A DNA stretch of 8,910 nucleotides, from the NCBI RefSeq assembly GCF_044324785.1, contig NZ_CP172131.1, one strand, 5' to 3'. A program made the translations under genes and the position numbers. This DNA is from Escherichia coli. Lineage in GTDB: Bacteria; Pseudomonadota; Gammaproteobacteria; Enterobacterales; Enterobacteriaceae. The notes under the pieces are model-generated. The model ran no database searches. It was given only the letters and a program-made list of their open reading frames with translations, and was not told the DNA's origin. Each line of letters starts with the position of its first letter. Positions within the stretch are counted from its first letter, which is position 1. Shown piece after piece: positions 1,773-8,910 of this stretch.

Positions 1773-3326
1773 TTACCATCCCAGCGACGGGCCATCCAGT
1801 GTCCGTTCCTGTATTTCCAGATGGCGCTCACGCTCTAGGAATAGCTCATGTTCACGTTCCTGTATCAGTAGTTCGTCCCTTATCTCCTGCTCTCGCTGTA
1901 TAACTGGCTCAAGTGTTCTGTCTGCTCGCTCAAGTGCTGCACCTGCTGACTCAACTGCATGACCCGCTCGTTCAGCATCGCGTTGTCCCGTTGCGTAAGC
2001 GAAAACATCTTCTGCAATTCCACGAAGGCGCTCTCCCATTCGTTCAGCCGCTGCATATAGTCCTGTTGCAGCTGCTCTAAGGCGTTCAGCAAATGTGTTT
2101 CCAGCTCTGTCACTCTGTGTCACTCCTTCAGATGTACCCACTCTTTCCCCTGAAAGGGAATCACCTCTGCTGATTTCCCGTACGGAAGGACCAGAAATTT
2201 CCTGTTCCCGTCCTGCACGAACTCCACGCCCCATGTCTTCGCGTTCAGTTTCTGCAATGTCTCTTCCTGCTTCCTGATATCTTCCAGGTTCGCCTGTATC
2301 CTCCCGCCAAGATACCAGAGCGTCCCGCCACTCGCGGTAAACAGGAGAAAGACTATCCCCAGTAACATCATGCCCGTATTCCCTGCCAGCTTTAACACGT
2401 CCTTCCTGTGCTGCCTCATCGCCTCTTTCACCCCTTCCCGGTGTTTCTCCAGCGATTCCTCTGTCGAGGCTGTGAACAGGGCTATAGCGTCTCTGATTTT
2501 CGTCTCGTTTGATGTCACAGCCTCGCTTACAGATTCGCCGAGCCTCCTGAACTCGTTGTTCAGCACTTTCTCTGTAGATTCGGCTCTCTCTTTCAGCTTT
2601 TTCTCGAACTCCGCGCCCGTCTGTAAAAGATTGCTCATAAAACGCTCCTTTCAGCCTGATATTCTTCCCGCCGTTCGGGTCTGCAATGCTGATGCTGCTT
2701 CGCGTCACCCTGACCACTTCAAGCCCCGCCTCTGTGAGCGCCTGAATCACATCCTGACGGCCTTTTATCTCCCCTACATGATAAAGAGCGTCTATCCCGC
2801 GTGTGACGCTCTCAGCAAGCGCCTGTTTCGTTTCCGGCAGGTTATCAGAGAGAGTCAGTATCCGGCGGTTCTCCGGGGCGTTGGGGTCATGCAGCCCGTA
2901 ATGGTGATTCACCAGCGTCTGCCAGGCATCAATTCTCGGCCTGTCTGCCCGGTCGTAGTACGGCTGGAGACGTTTTCCGGTCTGTAGCTCCATGTTCGGA
3001 ATGACAAAATTCAGCTCAAGCCGTCCCTTGTCCTGGTGCTCCACCCACAGGATGCTGTACTGATTCTTTTCGAGACCTGGCATCAGTACGCGCTCAAAGC
3101 TCGCCATCACTTTTTCACGTCCTCCCGGCGGCAGCTCCTTCTCCGCGAACGACAGAACGCCTGACGTGTATTTCTTCGCAAATGGCGTGGCATCGATGAG
3201 TTCCCGGACTTCTTCCGGATTACCCTGAAGCACCGTTGCGCCTTCGCGGTTACGCTCCCTCCCCAGCAGGTAATCAACCGGACCACTGCCACCACCTTTT
3301 CCCCTGGCATGAAATTTAACTATCAT
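1773..3326 (-). CDS. mbeA: MbeA mobilisation relaxase (MOBP/HEN family), 517 aa
   Basis: ORF 1773..3374 trimmed to the internal Met giving MIVKFHARGKGGGSGPVDYLLG (ATG at 3326..3324). Carries the catalytic Tyr context PVDYLL and a HEN-type motif (WVEHQDKGRLELNFVIPN). The 517-aa length matches my recollection of ColE1 MbeA, and the start overlaps the mbeC stop as in ColE1. Confidence 0.9.
   Translation of the reverse strand: MIVKFHARGKGGGSGPVDYLLGRERNREGATVLQGNPEEVRELIDATPFAKKYTSGVLSFAEKELPPGGREKVMASFERVLMPGLEKNQYSILWVEHQDKGRLELNFVIPNMELQTGKRLQPYYDRADRPRIDAWQTLVNHHYGLHDPNAPENRRILTLSDNLPETKQALAESVTRGIDALYHVGEIKGRQDVIQALTEAGLEVVRVTRSSISIADPNGGKNIRLKGAFYEQSFTDGRGVREKAERESRIYRESAEQRVQEARRICKRGCDIKRDENQRRYSPVHSLDRGIAGETPGRGERGDEAAQEGRVKAGREYGHDVTGDSLSPVYREWRDALVSWREDTGEPGRYQEAGRDIAETEREDMGRGVRAGREQEISGPSVREISRGDSLSGERVGTSEGVTQSDRAGNTFAERLRAAATGLYAAAERMGERLRGIAEDVFAYATGQRDAERAGHAVESAGAALERADRTLEPVIQREQEIRDELLIQEREHELFLERERHLEIQERTLDGPSLGW
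1880..2113 (-). CDS. mbeD: MbeD-like small mobilisation protein nested out of frame within mbeA
   Basis: 77-aa ORF lying wholly inside mbeA in another frame, the arrangement described for ColE1 mbeD. Start is GTG (2113..2111) with AAGGAG 9 nt upstream; coiled-coil-like sequence. The start-codon choice is uncertain. Confidence 0.6.
   Translation of the reverse strand: MTELETHLLNALEQLQQDYMQRLNEWESAFVELQKMFSLTQRDNAMLNERVMQLSQQVQHLSEQTEHLSQLYSESRR
2120..2638 (-). CDS. mbeB: MbeB mobilisation protein nested out of frame within mbeA, 172 aa
   Basis: ORF inside mbeA in an alternative frame with a perfect SD (gaaAGGAGcgtttt then ATG at 2638..2636); a hydrophobic segment (MMLLGIVFLLFTASGG) suggests membrane anchoring; size matches ColE1 MbeB as recalled. 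Confidence 0.8.
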   Translation of the reverse strand: MSNLLQTGAEFEKKLKERAESTEKVLNNEFRRLGESVSEAVTSNETKIRDAIALFTASTEESLEKHREGVKEAMRQHRKDVLKLAGNTGMMLLGIVFLLFTASGGTLWYLGGRIQANLEDIRKQEETLQKLNAKTWGVEFVQDGNRKFLVLPYGKSAEVIPFQGKEWVHLKE

Positions 3327-3672
3327 CCCGCGCCCCCTGTTCCCTGACGGCCAGACGCAGCCGGCGCAGCTCATCCCCGATGGCCATCAGTGCGGCCACC
3401 ACCTGAACCCGATCACCGGAAGACCACTGCCCGCTGTTCACCTTCCTCGCGGTCTGATTCAGGTTATTCCCGATGGCGGCCAGCTGACGCAGTAACGGCG
3501 GTGCCAGTGTCGGCAGCTTCCCGGAACGGGCAACCGGCTCCCCCAGGCAGACCCGCCGCATCCATACCGCCAGTTGTTTACCCTCACAGCGTTCCAGTAA
3601 CCGGGCATGTTCATCATCAGTAACCCGTATCGTGAGCATCCTCTCGCGTTTCATCGGTATCATTACCCCCAT
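3316..3672 (-). CDS. mbeC: MbeC relaxase accessory protein (ribbon-helix-helix type)
   Basis: ORF with the N-terminal motif MKRERMLTIRVTDDEHARLLERC typical of MobC/MbeC accessory proteins; sits immediately upstream of mbeA and overlaps it by 11 nt. The true start is ambiguous among three in-frame ATGs (3672, 3663, 3654); the longest is given. Confidence 0.8.
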   Translation of the reverse strand: MGVMIPMKRERMLTIRVTDDEHARLLERCEGKQLAVWMRRVCLGEPVARSGKLPTLAPPLLRQLAAIGNNLNQTARKVNSGQWSSGDRVQVVAALMAIGDELRRLRLAVREQGARDDS

Positions 3673-3703
3673 GAACAGAAATCCCCCTTACACGGAGGCA
3701 TCA

Positions 3704-3895
3704 GTGACTAAACAGGAAAAAACCGCCCTTAACATGGCCCGCTTCATCAGAGGCCAGACATTAACGCTGCTGGAGAAACTCAACGAACTGGACGCGGATG
3801 AACAGGCAGATATCTGTGAATCGCTTCACGACCACGCCGATGAGCTTTACCGCAGCTGCCTCGCACGTTTCGGGGATGACGGTGAAAACCTCTGA
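3704..3895 (+). CDS. rop: Rop/Rom, RNA I-RNA II pairing modulator, 63 aa
   Basis: GTG start at 3704 preceded by GGAGG (3694-3698). The translation VTKQEKTALNMARFIRGQTLTLLEKLNELDADEQADICESLHDHADELYRSCLARFGDDGENL matches Rop as I recall it from pBR322 except for one residue (G for S at position 17). Confidence 0.95.
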   Translation: MTKQEKTALNMARFIRGQTLTLLEKLNELDADEQADICESLHDHADELYRSCLARFGDDGENL

Positions 3896-3979
3896 CACAT
3901 GCAGCTCCCGGAGACGGTCACAGCTTGTCTGTGAGCGGATGCCGGGAGCCGACAAGCCCGTCAGGGCGCGTCAGCAGGT

Positions 3980-4050
3980 TTTAGCGGGTGTCGGGGCGCA
4001 GCCCTGACCCAGTCACGTAGCGATAGCGGAGTGTATACTGGCTTAGTCAT
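3980..4050 (+). other. bom/oriT region with predicted MbeA nic site (CTGG|CTTA, nick between 4041 and 4042)
   Basis: Sequence ggggcgcagccctgacccagtcacgtagcgatagcggagtgtatactggctta lies between rop and the origin exactly where pBR322/ColE1 carry bom; tactggctta at 4036-4045 contains the nic motif I recall for ColE1. Boundaries are approximate. Confidence 0.65.
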
Positions 4051-4217
4051 GCGGCATCGGTGCGGATTGTATGAAAAGTGCACCATGTACGGTGTGAAAT
4101 GCCGCACAGATGCGTAAGGAGAACATGCAGATGCCGATGCTCTTCCGCTTCCTCGCTCACTGACTCGCTGCGCTCGGTCGTTCGGCTGTGGCGAGCGGTG
4201 TCTGCTCACTCAAAAGC

Positions 4218-4226
4218 GGTGATACT
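4218..4226 (+). promoter_or_regulatory. DnaA box (ttatccaca) in the ColE1-type origin region
   Basis: Exact 9-mer match to the DnaA box consensus at the position where pBR322 has its DnaA box downstream of the RNA-DNA switch. Confidence 0.6.
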
Positions 4227-4719
4227 GTTATCCACACAATCAGGGGATAACGCCGGAAAGAACATGTGAGCAAAAAACGAAGACCCCAGAAAAGGCCGCG
4301 CCGGAGGCGCTTTTTCCATAGGCTCCGCCCCCCTGACGAGCATCACAAAAATCGACGCTCAAGTCAGAGGTGGCGAAACCCGACAGGACTTAAAGATACC
4401 AGGCGTTTCCCCCCGGAAGCTCCCTCGTGCGCTCTCCTGTTCCGACCCTGCCGCTTACCGGATACCTCTCCGCCTTTCTCCCTTCGGGAAGCGTGGCGCT
4501 TTCTCATAGCTCACGCTGTTGGTATCTCAGTTCGGTGTAGGTCGTTCGCTCCAAGCTGGGCTGTGTGCACGAACCCCCCGTTCAGCCCGACCGCTGCGCC
4601 TTATCCGGTAACTATCGTCTTGAGTCCAACCCGGTAAGACACGACAAAGCGCCACTGGCAGCAGCCGTTGGTAACTTGGTTAGCAGAGCGATGATGGCGC
4701 AAATGGTGCAACAGAGTTC

Positions 4720-4749
4720 TTGAAGTAGTGGCCCGACTACGGCTACACT
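4720..4749 (+). promoter_or_regulatory. RNA I promoter (-35 ttgaag 4720-4725, 18-bp spacer, -10 tacact 4744-4749)
   Basis: Conserved with the pMB1 RNA I promoter context (gttcttgaagt...ggctacact) directly upstream of the RNA I 5' end acagtatttgg. Confidence 0.7.
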
Positions 4750-4755
4750 GGAAGG

Positions 4756-4863
4756 ACAGTATTTGGTATCTGCGCTCTGCTGAAGCCAGTTACCTCGGTT
4801 AAGCAGTTCCCCAACTGACTTAACCTTCGATCAAACCGCCTCCCCAGGCGGTTTTTTCGTTTA
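4756..4863 (+). ncRNA. RNAI: RNA I antisense copy-number control RNA (about 108 nt)
   Basis: 5' region acagtatttggtatctgcgctctgctgaagccagttacct is identical to ColE1/pMB1 RNA I as recalled. Three stem-loops are retained, including ggttaag...cttaacc and the terminal hairpin aaaccgcctccccaggcggtttttt acting as terminator. Confidence 0.8.
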
Positions 4864-4871
4864 CAGGCAGC

Positions 4872-4900
4872 AGATTACGCGCAGAAAAAAAGGATCTCAA
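4872..4900 (-). promoter_or_regulatory. RNA II promoter (-35 TTGAGA as complement of 4895-4900; -10 TAATCT as complement of 4872-4877)
   Basis: The reverse complement reads ttgagatcctttttttctgcgcgtaatctg, matching the pMB1 RNA II promoter as I recall it. Confidence 0.7.
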
Positions 4901-4909
4901 GAAGATCCT
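4884..4909 (-). terminator. Intrinsic terminator downstream of kil, overlapping the RNA II promoter
   Basis: Stem aggatct/agatcct (4891-4897/4903-4909), loop caaga, with the A-run at 4884-4890 on + giving a T-run on the - strand just after the kil stop at 4920. Confidence 0.55.
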
Positions 4910-4919
4910 TTGATCTTTT

Positions 4920-5057
4920 CTACTGAACAGAGATCCCCGTCAGTTTAGAAGAAGATGATGGAGCCACAGTCCCTCCCTGAACATCACGTATATAGTTAGC
5001 CTGACATCCAACAAGGAGGTTTATAGCTAATATTCCCACAAAAAATCTTTTCCTCAT
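4920..5057 (-). CDS. kil: Colicin E1 lysis/release lipoprotein (Kil), 45 aa
   Basis: My own translation of the - strand (below the 60-aa ORF-track cut-off): [45 protein letters not shown], with lipobox LVGC and SD aagga 8 nt upstream of the ATG at 5057..5055. This is a typical colicin lysis protein placed downstream of cea and imm. Confidence 0.85.
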
Positions 5058-5104
5058 AACTCGATCCTTATAAAATGAAAAGAATATATAACGAGGTTTA
5101 ATTT

Positions 5105-5446
5105 ATGAGTTTAAGATACTACATAAAAAACATTTTGTTTGGCCTATATTGCACACTTATATATATATACCTTATAACAAAAAACAACGAAGGGTATTAT
5201 TTCCTAGCGTCAGATAAGATGCTATACGCAATCGTGATAAGCACTATTCTATGCCCATATTCAAAATATGCTATTGAACACATATTTTTTAAGTTCATAA
5301 AGAAAGATTTTTTCAGAAAAAGAAAAAATCTAAATAATGCCCCCGTGGCAAAATTAAACCTATTTATGCTATACAATCTACTTTGTTTGGTCCTAGCAAT
5401 CCCATTTGGATTGCTAGGACTGTTTATATCAATAAAGAATAATTAA
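5105..5446 (+). CDS. imm: Colicin E1 immunity protein (Imm), 113 aa integral membrane protein
   Basis: Translation [44 protein letters not shown]... matches the colicin E1 immunity protein as recalled; SD gagg 8 nt upstream; convergent with cea, with the two stop codons overlapping by 4 bp. Confidence 0.95.
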
Positions 5447-7008
5447 ATACCCAACACATCATTTATAGTATTAAGTTTATTCTTGTCAATAAAGGCACAT
5501 AGAATGCCTGTAACAATAGCAATCCCCCAGATACCTAATGTAGTTCCAGCAAGCACACTAAAAAGTAAAACAACAATATAACTAACTCCAGCATCTACAG
5601 TTTTCTTCTCTAATGTAAGAAATAGTGGCTTCCAGTCACCTGTATCCTTAATTTTTAGGATATCAGATACCACATCATATCCAAAAGAAACATGTCCCGT
5701 AATCTTCAAGTACTTAGCAAACTGATCTAAATGCTTAGCCCAGTCTTCATACTTAACCGATTCCAGTGCATTGAAAATCGCATCACGGTCTGCTTTGCTG
5801 AATTTCTTATTTAAAACATCCTTGTATTTTTCAAAAGCAGCTAGAGCTTCATTCACATTGCTGATTTTCTTACCTTTAGACTTATCAGCAAGTTCCTGTG
5901 CCATTTTTGAATATTTTTCACCATATTTTTCAGATAGCGTTTGATAAAAGCTAACTGTTGCATCCACAGCATCCTTAATCTGCGAGTTCAGGAGATTAGT
6001 CTGCGCTGTTTTCAAATTTTCTTCAGATTCATGAACACGTAAAACAGCTGTATTACGATTATTATTAGCCTGAGACATAGCCCCCTGAATTCCATTTATC
6101 TCAGCATTAAGTTGGTTAATACGCGTTTCTGATGCTGTTACCTGTTTTTGTTTTTCCTCCATAATCTTACCGGCTCCCGTCCGTCGACTGGTGGCATAGA
6201 AAAAAGGACGACTCTGAAGCGGATCATTAGCTCTTGGTGACAATTTTTTGACCAGTTCATCAAGTTCCTTATATTTAGCAGATGCCTGAGCCAGCTCATT
6301 TCGTTTTCCGGACAGCGTATTCATTTCTGCATCACGGGCATGAATACTGGAGCTTAAACGGGTATTGAGAGTCTTAATCTCTTCATCCACTTTCGCCAGC
6401 TCAGATTGTGCAGCAGCAAGATTTTTTTGTGCCACCTCCACTGCCCGGGCCTCTTCATTCAATGCTGCCAGCCGTTTCTCTTCAGCTTCAGCCAGTTTCA
6501 ACTGGCGTTCTGTTTCAGCCTGCTCCTTCTCTATCTCTTTACGTCGTTGTTCTGCCTCCTGAAAAGCCTTTTCCGCAGCTTCCGCTTCTTTACGGGCTTT
6601 TTCTTCTGCTTTTGCAAGGCGCAACCGCTCTGCTTCTGCCTGCATCGCTGCATTATTGGCATGAGCCAGGTCAATAACCTCCGGATGAGTGGAATTATGA
6701 CGAAGCGCCTCATTCACAATATCCTTCAGATGTTGAGTCAGCGCATCCCGGTTTGCTTTTGCTTTAGCCTGTGCTTCTGCGGCAGCTTTTGCCCGGGCAG
6801 CCTGTTCTGCCTGCGTTTTCTTCAATTGAGCAGTAGACCATTTAGCTGTGGCATGAATGGCTGCAGAACTTTCACTTTTGCTACCTCCAGTTCCACCACC
6901 GCCGCCAGAGCCACTCCCGTCTGGATTACCATTCAAAAGAGTAATGATTACCTGCCCCTTATCATCATAAGGAACACCATCTTTATAGTACGCTACAGCT
7001 GTTTCCAT
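5443..7008 (-). CDS. cea: Colicin E1 (pore-forming colicin), 521 aa
   Basis: N-terminus [39 protein letters not shown] (Gly-rich translocation domain), a long Ala/Glu/Lys-rich coiled-coil central region, and a C-terminal channel domain with the hydrophobic hairpin [33 protein letters not shown]; SD gagg 8 nt upstream. Confidence 0.95.
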
Positions 7009-7055
7009 TATAAAATCCTCTTTGACATTAAAAACAAATAGTTAAAAGCAATATA

Positions 7056-7086
7056 CTGTATATATAACCACTGGTTTTATATACAG
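7056..7086. promoter_or_regulatory. Two overlapping LexA (SOS) boxes between the cea promoter and start codon
   Basis: On the - strand the sequence reads CTGTATATAAAACCAG followed by TGGTTATATATACAG: the first is a perfect CTG-N10-CAG box and the second overlaps it by one base, the standard colicin dual-box layout. Confidence 0.85.
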
Positions 7087-7090
7087 CTTA

Positions 7091-7119
7091 AAATTACGCC
7101 GCTGCATTTTCCCTGTCAA
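7091..7119 (-). promoter_or_regulatory. cea (colicin) promoter: -35 TTGACA (complement of 7114-7119), 17-bp spacer, -10 TAATTT (complement of 7091-7096)
   Basis: Consensus -35 with a 17-bp spacer, immediately upstream of the LexA boxes and about 85 bp upstream of the cea ATG. Confidence 0.75.
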
Positions 7120-7138
7120 CCCTGTGGATTTTCATTTT

Positions 7139-7154
7139 TGTGAAAACGATCAAA
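7139..7154. promoter_or_regulatory. Putative cAMP-CRP site (tgtga-aaacga-tcaaa) in class I position upstream of the cea promoter
   Basis: 9 of 10 match to TGTGA-N6-TCACA; centred about 62 bp upstream of the inferred transcription start; consistent with the known catabolite sensitivity of colicin E1 synthesis. Confidence 0.5.
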
Positions 7155-7267
7155 AAAACAGCCACCCACACCACGTGCTATTCCCACCCGATGCCACAAA
7201 AACCAGCACAAACATTACCGTTCTCCGGCCCCAGTATGTTTTACTGAAACCATGATATGAGACATTA

Positions 7268-7705
7268 ATGGGACACTGTCACTTCATGGCATGGCACACA
7301 CTCCAGAACGCACTGAAAATGACAGGCAGATCGCGTTCACAGTTTTACCGTGATATGCGCGCAGGCCTTGTCAGTTATCGTACAGGCCAGGACGGACGGC
7401 GGGAGTTTGAAACCAGTGAACTGATCCGGGCATACGGCGAATTAAAGCAGGATGAGACACCAGAAAGGCACAGTGCGGGACAGGCAGAAAATCCACATGA
7501 TCAGCAGACAGAACGCATTCTCCGGGAGCTGAATGAGCTGAGACAATGCCTGACACTGATGCTTGAGGACAAACAGGCACAGGCTACGGAACGCCGGCGC
7601 CAGGAAGCCGAACGGGAACAGCTACATAAAGAGATAGAGCAGCTCAGGCAGGCACTGGAGCAGGAAAAAAAACGGGGATTCTGGGCCAGACTGTTCAGCC
7701 GGTGA
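7268..7705 (+). CDS. Hypothetical protein: N-terminal helix-turn-helix-like segment plus charged coiled-coil C-terminus (145 aa from the first ATG)
   Basis: ORF with an AlpA/MerR-like HTH-looking segment (MTGRSRSQFYRDMRAGLVSY) and an E/R/Q-rich heptad-like C-terminal half. None of the three candidate starts (7268, 7286, 7319) has a good SD, so start and expression are uncertain. Confidence 0.5.
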   Translation: MGHCHFMAWHTLQNALKMTGRSRSQFYRDMRAGLVSYRTGQDGRREFETSELIRAYGELKQDETPERHSAGQAENPHDQQTERILRELNELRQCLTLMLEDKQAQATERRRQEAEREQLHKEIEQLRQALEQEKKRGFWARLFSR

Positions 7706-7788
7706 GCACCGACTGCAAGTGATGATAAGATAGTCAGCGGTTAAATATAAGTCACTGAGTACAAAGATTTAAAGGTAAGGAGACACTC

Positions 7789-8208
7789 ATGAGACGTTCC
7801 GGCGGCACACTGTATCTTATCGCCCTGCTGACAGCGGCAACGGTCCTGACAGCCTGCACGCCAAAGGGCAGTGTGGAACAACATACCCGGCATTACGTTT
7901 ATGCATCAGACGATGGTTTTGATCCTAACTTTTCCACCCAGAAGGCCGACACAACACGAATGATGGTGCCTTTTTTCCGGCAGTTCTGGGATATGGGAGC
8001 AAAGGATAAAGCGACAGGAAAATCACGGAGTGATGTGCAGCAACGCATTCAGCAGTTTCACAGCCAGGAATTTTTAAACTCACTCCGGGGCACAACTCAA
8101 TTTGCGGGTACTGATTACCGCAGCAAAGACCTTACCCCGAAAAAATCCAGGCTGCTGGCTGAGACGATTTCTGCGGTTTATCTCGATGGCTACGAGGGAA
8201 GACAGTAA
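7789..8208 (+). CDS. Predicted lipoprotein, 139 aa, function unknown (candidate entry-exclusion-type protein)
   Basis: Strong SD (taaggag, 6-nt spacing) and a signal peptide with lipobox (MRRSGGTLYLIALLTAATVLTAC, Thr at +2). The stop lies 5 bp before the cer core. Confidence 0.7.
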   Translation: MRRSGGTLYLIALLTAATVLTACTPKGSVEQHTRHYVYASDDGFDPNFSTQKADTTRMMVPFFRQFWDMGAKDKATGKSRSDVQQRIQQFHSQEFLNSLRGTTQFAGTDYRSKDLTPKKSRLLAETISAVYLDGYEGRQ

Positions 8209-8212
8209 GTGG

Positions 8213-8242
8213 ATTTACCATAATCCCTTAATTGTACGCACC
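8213..8242 (-). other. cer-type XerC/XerD core recombination site for plasmid multimer resolution
   Basis: atttaccataatcccttaattgtacgcacc is the exact reverse complement of the ColE1 cer core as I recall it: GGTGCGTACAA (XerC arm), TTAAGGGA (8-bp spacer), TTATGGTAAAT (XerD arm). Confidence 0.85.
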
Positions 8243-8420
8243 GCTGAAATGCATTCAGCGCAATCACGGCAGCAGACAGGTAAAAATCGCAACAACCCCC
8301 CCGAAAAACTACCGCGATCGCGCCTGATAAATTTTAACCTTATGCATACCTATGCATCCAGGTGAATCACAAGCGAATTTCCTTACTGAGACGACTGAAA
8401 CGGTTTTTTTTCACAATTTT
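8243..8420 (-). other. Inferred cer accessory region (ArgR/PepA-binding sequences; expected location of the Pcer promoter for Rcd)
   Basis: In cer the roughly 180-bp accessory sequences flank the XerC arm, which here faces higher coordinates. A near-palindrome gctgaa-atgca-ttcagc (8243-8259) abuts the XerC arm. The extent is inferred, not seen; Rcd would run on the - strand through the core. Confidence 0.45.
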
Positions 8421-8679
8421 CAGCTGTTTTCGATTCCACAAAATAGAAGTTACAGGATAGGGATTAATCCCCTTCGCCGCCAAGGGGAGCAGGATGAGTC
8501 AGGGGAATGTCTATTCACCTGCGCTGTACAGGCTGCCAGGTAAAAGTATTCGCTGCGGCACGATACTCTTTTGCCCTCATAGCCTTTGCGCTTCTTACTT
8601 TTCGTTCTTCCAGAATCATTCTTAAGACATTTTCCCGCACTTTTCTCTAACTTCCCGTGGCAATTTATCTCTGCCGGAC

Positions 8680-8910
8680 TGAACCGCCCCGGAAATCCTG
8701 GAGACTAAACTTCCTGAGAAAGATGTAAACAGGATGACTAAAAATACTCGTTTTTCCCCCGAAGTCCGTCAACGGGCAGTTCGTATGGTTCTGGAAAGCC
8801 AGGGCGAATATGACTCACAATGGGCGGCAATTTGTTCCATTGCTCCAAAGATTGGCTGTACGCCAGAGACCCTGCGTGTCTGGGTTCGCCAGCATGAGCG
8901 GGATACCGGG
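8680..8910 (+). mobile_element. Left end of an IS3-family insertion sequence resembling IS629 (partial; continues past the window)
   Basis: Terminal sequence tgaaccgccccggaaatcctggagactaaacttcctgagaaag starting at 8680 with the 5'-TG typical of IS3-family ends, followed 54 bp later by the orfA start. Confidence 0.8.
8734..8910 (+). CDS. IS3-family transposase OrfA (HTH N-terminal part), truncated by the window end
   Basis: Translation [59 protein letters not shown] is open to the last base; it matches IS629-group OrfA N-termini as recalled. Confidence 0.8.

Follow-up and report, generated by a model that had tools for sequence, protein, structure and literature searches.

The copy-control region of this plasmid raises the question of whether a replicon that resembles ColE1 in both of its promoters and in the 5′ part of its antisense RNA, yet differs in the part specifying stem-loops (SL) II and III, retains the incompatibility specificity of ColE1, and how the differing part arose. 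The window, i.e. the whole stretch of DNA that was analysed (8910 bp), represents a complete small colicin plasmid of the ColE1 family, of about 8.9 kb, and encodes a variant of colicin E1 (464/522 residues identical to the ColE1 colicin).

The origin region at 4200-4950 (751 nt) is 100% identical to that of pSMS35_8 of E. coli SMS-3-5 (NC_010485.1, 8909 bp), and the same holds for a dozen further 8.9-kb E. coli plasmids, derived mostly from poultry. Plasmid pLH10-b-1-E (NZ_CP100535.1, 8910 bp) differs from the window by six mismatches in 7348 compared positions, and the 8.9-kb plasmids PK8261 and PK8275 are likewise the same plasmid as that in the window. Judging by these comparisons, the window plasmid is essentially pSMS35_8/pLH10-b-1-E. 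Another record, p135-5 (22,976 bp), consists of ~2.5 tandem copies of the window plasmid and has the appearance of an assembly artefact or a multimer; its three matching places within one record are tandem copies and hence uninformative on compatibility. No gene for a Rep-family initiator could be identified among the open reading frames or annotations of the window, and a 52 amino acid ORF annotated as 'replication initiation protein' sits within RNA II. Replication of the ColE1 type proceeds without a plasmid-encoded Rep protein, making use of the host RNA polymerase, RNase H and DNA polymerase I. The PLSDB/MOB-suite classification assigns 'rep_cluster_2350' to both the window plasmid and ColE1. 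By every criterion testable here the region belongs to the family of ColE1-type replicons, and it is an ordinary case in that it joins known modules of a well-understood system in a new way.

The Rfam model RF00106 matches positions 4758-4860 on the plus strand (87.4 bits; E-value: 1.3e-15; gathering score: 47), and the elements of the locus are summarized in Table 1. RNA I folds into three hairpins with a minimum free energy (MFE) of -41.8 kcal/mol (z = -7.54), with 0/200 shuffled sequences folding as well, and compensatory changes are observed in 10/31 consensus pairs when nine diverse relatives are compared. The terminator called by the scan comprises nine pairs, a 4-nt loop and the tail TTTCGTTTAC. 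A strict consensus scan over 4200-5000 called no sigma-70 sites, and the assignment of the promoters P1 and P2 therefore rests on identity with ColE1, in the alignment to which the hexamers of both are unchanged. The RNA I promoter of ColE1 is a characterised promoter. The hairpin that terminates the colicin/lysis operon (4911-4889) extends into P2. Transcript ends, promoters and mechanism, as given here for the window replicon, are predictions transferred from ColE1 by homology.

Table 1. Predicted elements of the copy-control region and the rop gene in the 8910-bp window.
Feature	Position	Strand	Basis
RNA I, antisense copy-number repressor, 107 nt	4756-4862	+	Alignment to the ColE1 transcript
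RNA I 5′ tail, 9 nt, ColE1-type	4756-4764	+	40/40 together with SL-I versus ColE1
SL-I, ColE1-type	4765-4794	+	Fold and alignment
SL-II (GGTTAAG...CTTAACC), loop UUCCCCAA at 4807-4814	4797-4825	+	Fold
SL-III (AAACCGCC...GGCGGTTT), loop CUCCCCAG	4828-4859	+	Fold
RNA I intrinsic terminator, inner SL-III stem 4833-4854 and T-run	4833-4862	+	Terminator scan
RNA I promoter P1: -35 TTGAAG (4720-4725), 18-nt spacer, -10 TACACT (4744-4749)	4720-4749	+	ColE1 homology
RNA II promoter P2: -35 TTGAGA (4900-4895), 17-nt spacer, -10 TAATCT (4877-4872)	4872-4900	-	Homology
CloDF13-type cassette: SL-II, SL-III, RNA I 3′ end, RNA II +1	4796-4866		Alignment
RNA II primer precursor, +1 at about 4864 to oriV at about 4310 (GCGC|TTTTTCC context)	4310-4864	-	Ends by homology
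RNA II alpha, nt 71-92, GGUAACUGGCUUCAGCAGAGCG, ColE1-type; 5′ half of the third hairpin	4773-4794	-	Folding
RNA II beta, nt 175-195, CGCUCUGCUAACCAAGUUACC; partner of alpha in structure IV	4670-4690	-	Folding
rop/rom, 63 aa, S17G	3704-3895	+	Translation versus ColE1 and pSMS35_8; PDB 1ROP, E-value: 8e-38

An earlier note on this DNA had stated that the first ~40 nt of RNA I and both promoters match ColE1/pMB1, and that the segment at ~4795-4860 differs while still forming two hairpins. Both statements are borne out. RNA I nt 1-40 are identical to ColE1 (NC_001371; 40/40), as compared to 33/40 for CloDF13 (NC_002119.1), the hairpins quoted in the note are exactly SL-II and SL-III, and loops II and III are unlike those of ColE1. 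When compared in stretches of 40 columns, identity to ColE1 is 0.93-1.00 at 4315-4793 and from 4851 on, and 0.42-0.47 across 4794-4850; across 4796-4860 it is about 0.4. Loops II and III both read UUGGUAG in ColE1, while both read UCCCCA in the window, and ColE1-sized plasmids of 6647 bp match positions 1-40 only of the 108-nt region. The RNA I of the pMB1/pUC type is represented by a contaminant locus (L105) from a contig scan with the 15-mer GATCTCAAGAAGATC over 298 Gb, where RNA I was present in just 4/120 loci. As L105 differs from ColE1 RNA I by a single base, located in SL-III, the contrast between the window and ColE1 also holds for the pMB1/pUC type, as does the agreement over the first 40 nt. 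p15A presumably has the base of SL-II and the stem of SL-III in common, its loops being different.

The four-way alignment indicates where the differing segment belongs. Across 4783-4842 the identity of the window to CloDF13 is 0.97-1.00, while that to ColE1 is 0.37-0.57 in 4783-4854; across 4678-4737 it is ColE1 that is closer (0.87-0.97, versus 0.43-0.53 for CloDF13). At 4796-4866 there are two differences to CloDF13 in 71 nt, and these form the two sides of one SL-III pair (CCGCC/GGCGG in the window and CCACC/GGTGG in CloDF13, i.e. G-C versus A-U), while loops II and III are letter-for-letter identical in the CloDF13 RNA I recovered by an Rfam run on reference plasmids. The breakpoints lie at 4795/4796 on the left and between 4866 and about 4870 on the right. 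Since the cassette is CloDF13-like, while its flanks are ColE1-like and far from CloDF13, the replicon reads as a mosaic of a ColE1 backbone and a CloDF13-type cassette of ~70 nt. The earlier note had described the segment as diverged; with only 2/71 differences to CloDF13, 'exchanged' is the fitting word. As regards donor and recipient lineages, ColE1 itself might be a recombinant with an acquired pMB1-type cassette; the RNA I of the window fits the Rfam family consensus with 87 bits, versus 74 bits for that of ColE1. An inversion of the hairpins, whose G-rich side lies in RNA I in ColE1 and in RNA II in the window, was considered and dropped, as the identity to CloDF13 explains the sequence.

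The borders of the cassette coincide with a boundary in the predicted folding of RNA II. The RNA II region (555 nt) is colinear with that of ColE1, with an identity of 0.93-1.00 over 4315-4630, and the beta element differs from that of ColE1 by few bases (ACTTGGTT versus ACCGGATT), the pairing being retained in a shifted register. MFE folds were calculated for the first 110, 150, 200 and 250 nt of RNA II from the window, ColE1 and CloDF13. For all three a switch is predicted, in which alpha, at 200 and 250 nt, quits the third hairpin and pairs with beta. This is matched by the alpha-beta/structure IV switch that Masukata and Tomizawa are said to have described in 1986. The first two RNA II hairpins (nt 1-68), which represent exactly the cassette, are predicted to fold independently at every length in all three plasmids. 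Because they remain independent throughout, the cassette is predicted to cover that portion of RNA II which is uncoupled from primer folding, with the retained ColE1 part beginning where the coupling begins. Both borders consist of sequence conserved family-wide, one of them being GCCAGTTACC and the other the T-run together with the RNA II promoter, and these conserved borders would act as recombination substrates.

Neither the mosaic RNA I nor its cassette is rare. The window RNA I (108 nt, ≥99% identity) is present in 279 PLSDB records, and complete E. coli genomes contain a 111-nt version at ≥99% identity in 58 records. The hosts and sources of the latter include chickens, pigs, humans, kites and wastewater, and it is also found in metagenome contigs. 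The cassette alone (roughly ≥90% identity) occurs in 441 records, covering 419 of 5426 E. coli genomes, as compared to 293 records and 288 E. coli genomes for the ColE1/pMB1-type cassette. Across six sampled identity classes the same SL-II (30-31/31 nt) is found with other SL-I sequences, the sampled carriers including CloDF13 and a cloacin plasmid, a ColK plasmid, pE2348-2, p4_4.4 and p010_D. In all, the SL-II/III of the window is also found behind five other SL-I sequences, its loop pair being combined with five or more different ones, and the colicin R plasmid pLH10-b-1-D carries the ColE1 SL-II/III behind a different SL-I.

The same pattern extends to metagenomic relatives. A scan anchored on the SL-I/SL-II junction returned 120 contigs, which yielded 88 distinct genuine RNA I variants. 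Among these variants, 6/12 SL-I clusters are combined with more than one type of cassette, four SL-I clusters include members with the UCCCCA/UCCCCA type, and thirteen four-gamete quartets (two SL-I by two cassette types, in all combinations) can be formed. As SL-I clusters carry several cassettes and so many quartets are complete, reassortment of SL-I and SL-II/III is routine in the family, with the window as an ordinary outcome of it. Some of the metagenome contigs contain two RNA I loci and resemble dimers, or else cointegrates or chimeric assemblies; these were left out of account. Loop II is identical to loop III in 64 of the 88 variants, and six independent matched-loop types can be recognized, namely UCCCCA, CUUGCCGG, CUGCCAGG, UUGCUG, CGCCAA and UUGGUAG. 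We tentatively propose, as a conjecture that we hold to be less probable than its converse, a two-part code (SL-I by SL-II/III cassette) which is reshuffled at GTTACC/CGGTT and in which matched loops II and III are selected. Under such a code a single exchange may create a new compatibility group, of which the window would be one product, and the selection for matched loops might act through, e.g., a twofold number of productive kissing contacts or a better fit to Rop. No description of a ColE1/CloDF13 mosaic, of module reassortment or of matched loops was found in the searchable literature, outside of which much classical ColE1 work lies, and pSMS35_8 is named there in one paper only, on kil. 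The reassortment and matched-loop patterns may already be known.

As to what the exchange means for incompatibility, ColE1 and CloDF13 represent separate compatibility groups (PMC9458437; PMC12307069), and differing loops are not enough to predict compatibility (PMC9458437). The best duplex of the window RNA I is that with its cognate RNA II (-220 kcal/mol), followed by those with CloDF13 RNA II (-184 kcal/mol) and ColE1 RNA II (-115 kcal/mol). The heterologous duplexes amount to -184 and -188 kcal/mol for window/CloDF13, -115 to -125 kcal/mol for window/ColE1 and -97 to -103 kcal/mol for ColE1/CloDF13. If the ColE1/pMB1 group is delimited by complementarity in all three loops, loop I of the window is identical, while loops II and III are unrelated and without complementarity to the loops of ColE1 RNA II, which places the window outside the group by sequence. 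If the CloDF13 group is delimited by complementarity in the three loops and the tail, loops II and III are identical, while loop I and the tail differ, and the window again falls outside.

Individual cases of co-residence in genome assemblies bear on the same point. In E. coli SCU-101, the RNA I of pSCU-101-2 is identical to that of ColE1 (110/110), and pSCU-101-1 carries the chimera, with the same tail and SL-I and the UCCCCA cassette, 2 nt off the window in the SL-II stem. Strain LH10-b-1 harbors a near-identical 8910-bp plasmid beside a plasmid with ColE1-type SL-II/III, while in SMS-3-5, pSMS35_8 is accompanied by the ColE1-like pSMS35_3, all three loops of which differ. In CAU16175, an RNA I 100% identical to that of the window resides beside a ColK plasmid whose loop III is the same, whose loop II lacks one U and whose SL-I is different. 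The SCU-101 plasmid records are flagged as linear. A further candidate for a co-resident ColE1-like plasmid, pSMS35_4, was discarded, as it is a Rep-protein plasmid with no RNA I match.

From these cases, coexistence of the chimera appears possible both with replicons that share SL-I only and with those that share almost only the cassette, and because both types of co-residence occur, specificity would depend on the combination of modules. Co-residence could also reflect colicin/immunity selection holding interfering plasmids together. On the basis of duplex energies, loops and co-residence, the specificity of the window replicon is probably different from that of ColE1/pMB1, and an overlap with the CloDF13 group is possible. 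The earlier note had proposed such a difference from ColE1 and pMB1, and in this it is indirectly supported by the loops, the duplex energies and SCU-101; the specificity is not, however, new to the family and may overlap with that of CloDF13. Its premise of a specificity governed by loops II and III only is too simple, given the five or more SL-I partners of the cassette and the co-residence with ColK in CAU16175.

The strongest of the competing explanations takes this overlap further and holds that the plasmid, rather than acquiring a specificity of its own, has changed over to the incompatibility group of CloDF13, with mutual inhibition between it and replicons with CloDF13-type RNA I. We regard this as possible, albeit with the odds against it. 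Loops II and III are identical and the stems are one base pair apart, and the duplexes with CloDF13 reach about 84% of the cognate value. Single-base changes in the loops reportedly altered ColE1 specificity, in work from 1981 attributed to Tomizawa and Itoh and to Lacatena and Cesareni, and in view of such effects the identical loops suggest cross-reaction. Against this, SL-I and the tail of CloDF13 differ from those of the window at 7/40 positions, including two bases of loop I and three in the SL-I stem, with a 1-nt deletion in the tail where pairing nucleates. The cassette furthermore coexists with its ColK counterpart in CAU16175, and the occurrence of UCCCCA/UCCCCA on at least four SL-I clusters is hard to fit to one incompatibility group. 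The co-residence comparison with CloDF13 has low power, since few E. coli genomes contain a plasmid that is truly of the CloDF13 type.

A less probable alternative, which we consider unlikely, is that the exchange has brought no functional change, the tail, SL-I and alpha sufficing for the RNA I of ColE1/pMB1 to inhibit the RNA II of the window, which would still belong to the ColE1 incompatibility group. The 40 nt of perfect complementarity over the tail, loop I and alpha speak for it, as does the window/ColE1 duplex, which is slightly better than that of the separately grouped ColE1 and CloDF13. However, a plasmid with 100% ColE1 RNA I resides beside the chimera in SCU-101, two of the three loops cannot pair, with the C-rich loops of the window RNA I facing the C-rich loops of ColE1 RNA II, and in classical binding kinetics a mismatch in a single loop already lowers the binding rate strongly. 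The complementarity to ColE1 RNA II, inclusive of alpha, could still result in partial cross-inhibition.

With regard to origin, one may also suppose that the SL-II/III segment arose within the ColE1 lineage itself, by a build-up of point mutations which diversifying selection for a new incompatibility type had favoured; to this course of events we attach very little probability. The sharp confinement of the difference to the specificity-determining hairpins would suit it, as would the preservation of these hairpins by fully compensated changes relative to ColE1. Such a process would nevertheless have had to converge on CloDF13 at all but 2/71 positions, inclusive of stems for whose identity there is no selective rationale, while the adjoining 60 nt remained ColE1-like (≥97% identity) and ~50% different from CloDF13, and the same cassette is found on many unrelated backbones; the four-way alignment effectively refutes it. 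That the chimeric junction is an artefact of sequencing, assembly or cloning, as the tandem copies of p135-5 might prompt one to think, has practically no probability and is refuted, the independent records being too numerous for it; they comprise the 58 from complete genomes of varied hosts, the 279 in PLSDB and the metagenome contigs.

We therefore consider it probable that the region represents an antisense copy-control and incompatibility determinant in which a ColE1 backbone carries a CloDF13-type cassette. The ColE1 mechanism is established, and the control of incompatibility by the loops of RNA I has been textbook knowledge since 1981. By analogy, RNA II would be transcribed leftward from about 4864 and prime DNA synthesis at about 4310. 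RNA I, its perfect antisense, would meet the three 5′ hairpins of the nascent RNA II loop-to-loop, Rop would stabilise the kissing complex, and the duplex would then zip from the RNA I 5′ tail. Alpha would thereby be kept off beta, and no primer would form. The ColE1 backbone comprises the tail, SL-I, both promoters, alpha/beta and the origin, while the SL-II/III cassette, whose type also occurs in CloDF13, in ColK and on numerous other plasmids, would be exchangeable by homologous recombination between co-resident relatives. As the hairpins of the cassette are independent and its borders conserved, such an exchange would leave primer folding undisturbed. With one of three loops matching ColE1/pMB1, coexistence with these replicons is predicted, and with two of three matching CloDF13-type replicons, some cross-inhibition with the latter is possible.

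The kissing complex would involve a Rop protein which, as the earlier note had stated, differs from the known protein by one residue. Comparison with Rop of ColE1, pSMS35_8 and PDB 1ROP confirms this single difference, S17G (...ARFIRGQTL... in the window versus ...ARFIRSQTL...). Residue 17 is situated in helix 1 and adjoins Phe14 and Gln18, which we take to be RNA-contacting residues. Gly17 is shared by pLH10-b-1-E, while pSMS35_8 has Ser17. Since the latter combines an identical RNA I with wild-type Rop, the substitution does not track the RNA I type and is a polymorphism inside the 8.9-kb plasmid lineage, rather than an adaptation to the loops.

For the plasmid itself these results are of little import, its sequence having been public since pSMS35_8 and its behaviour following textbook antisense control. 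Replicon typing groups the window plasmid with ColE1, yet from its RNA I one would expect it to coexist with plasmids and vectors of the ColE1/pMB1 type, and possibly to interfere with vectors carrying the CloDF13 origin (pCDF). Mosaic antisense RNAs would represent a common way for ColE1-type plasmids to change the relatives with which they coexist. The window plasmid, ColE1 and CloDF13 furthermore constitute a natural, near-isogenic set for weighing the share of each stem-loop in incompatibility and, if not yet described, reassortment and matched loops may be of interest to plasmid biologists and designers of orthogonal origins.

Among the known systems, ColE1 (NC_001371.1/J01566) is the closest in overall structure, its whole genome being colinear with positions 1775-8361 of the window at 92% identity over 6.6 kb. 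The two have the mbe genes, rop, the origin, exc1/exc2 and the layout of the cea-imm-kil operon in common, while the window contains ~2.3 kb of additional DNA (8362-8910 and 1-1774). CloDF13 shares a nearly identical RNA II promoter and a matching RNA I terminator with the window, but is distinguished by a 41-nt insertion close to the origin, the lack of an annotated rop, a cloacin and a different mobilisation system. Plasmids of the ColK and pE2348-2 types carry the same SL-II/III module with other SL-I sequences (29-34/40) and on other backbones, while p010_D combines the UCCCCA/UCCCCA module, as in the window, with an SL-I that is also of the ColE1 type (39/40). Randomised RNA I loops on the ColE1 origin rendered plasmids compatible with wild-type ColE1 (Chaillou et al. 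2022; PMC9458437). In these synthetic origins only the loops are altered, whereas the window represents a natural swap of whole hairpins, inclusive of their stems, in which loop I has been kept.

In most cases, the core of loop II is repeated in loop III of the same RNA I (window 4807-4814 and 4840-4847; loci L003, L006, L036, L055 and L141-L260). The core UCCCCA occurs in both loops of the window and of CloDF13, UUGGUAG in both loops of ColE1/pMB1 and CUUGCCGG in both loops of pSMS35_3, while further matched types have CUGCCAGG, UUGCUG or CGCCAA in each of the two loops. Among the 88 distinct metagenomic RNA I variants, recovered by a scan anchored on the SL-I/SL-II junction, the loop II core is identical to the loop III core in 64, a count that was reached in 7 of 10,000 trials of a shuffle control. 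The main exception is a p15A-like type, in which UUGGUAG is paired with CUGCAA. Matched loops II and III have been remarked on for single plasmids in the pCS36-4CPA paper. The G-rich strand of the loops is found in RNA I in ColE1, as opposed to RNA II in the window.

Two further patches of reduced identity to ColE1 (0.65-0.88) are located at window positions 4640-4690, comprising the beta segment of RNA II and its surroundings, and 4115-4310, just past the origin in the lagging-strand/primosome-site region. These may represent additional mosaic segments. The stretch at 4620-4664 shares 0.93 identity with pSMS35_3, compared to 0.83 with ColE1.

Features in and around the RNA II region and the colicin operon of the window.
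Feature	Coordinates	Strand	Remarks
52-aa ORF	4565-4723	+	Wholly within RNA II primer region
Hairpin and T-run	4889-4911	-	Directly after kil stop codon (4920)
Lysis protein (kil)	4920-5057	-	42/45 identical to ColE1
Immunity protein	5105-5446	+	106/113 identical to ColE1
Colicin, E1 variant	5443-7008	-	464/522 identical to ColE1 Cea

In the window, the RefSeq annotation of the 52-aa ORF reads 'hypothetical protein'; for ColE1 and many relatives it reads 'replication initiation protein'. ColE1-type replicons do not require a plasmid initiator, and as such this ORF is probably a spurious gene prediction that has been propagated.

The colicin departs most from ColE1 Cea near residues 300-350 and over its final ~20 residues, and the differences from ColE1 in the immunity protein and the pore domain might reflect a shifted immunity specificity. 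Read-through of the colicin operon under SOS induction would proceed in the same direction as RNA II. The arrangement at 4889-4911 is kept in the alignment with ColE1 and CloDF13.

In the database record of plasmid p135-5 (L007; NZ_CP080265.1; 22,976 bp), the 8.9-kb plasmid is repeated ~2.5 times in tandem, and several genes are frameshifted or truncated. The record is probably an artefact of long-read assembly or else a multimer that was not resolved. A 5602-bp metagenome contig (L167) harbors two RNA I loci (~386 and ~3060; - strand), which have identical SL-III, a one-base difference in SL-II and different SL-I sequences. Either two replicons with a common UCCCCA cassette have formed a natural cointegrate here, or the contig was assembled chimerically through the sequence that they share.

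A region of ~2.3 kb (window 8362-8910 and 1-1774, across the circular junction) is without counterpart in ColE1. It contains no ORF longer than 92 aa, and in the near-identical plasmid pLH10-b-1-E the one feature that RefSeq annotates there is a fragment of a transposase pseudogene, equivalent to window ~8734-8910. Coverage of at least 80% of positions 1-1774 is reached by only 25 PLSDB records. Larger E. coli plasmids (130-154 kb) contain stretches with ~80% similarity, and positions 1630-1774 are common to many small ColE1-like plasmids.
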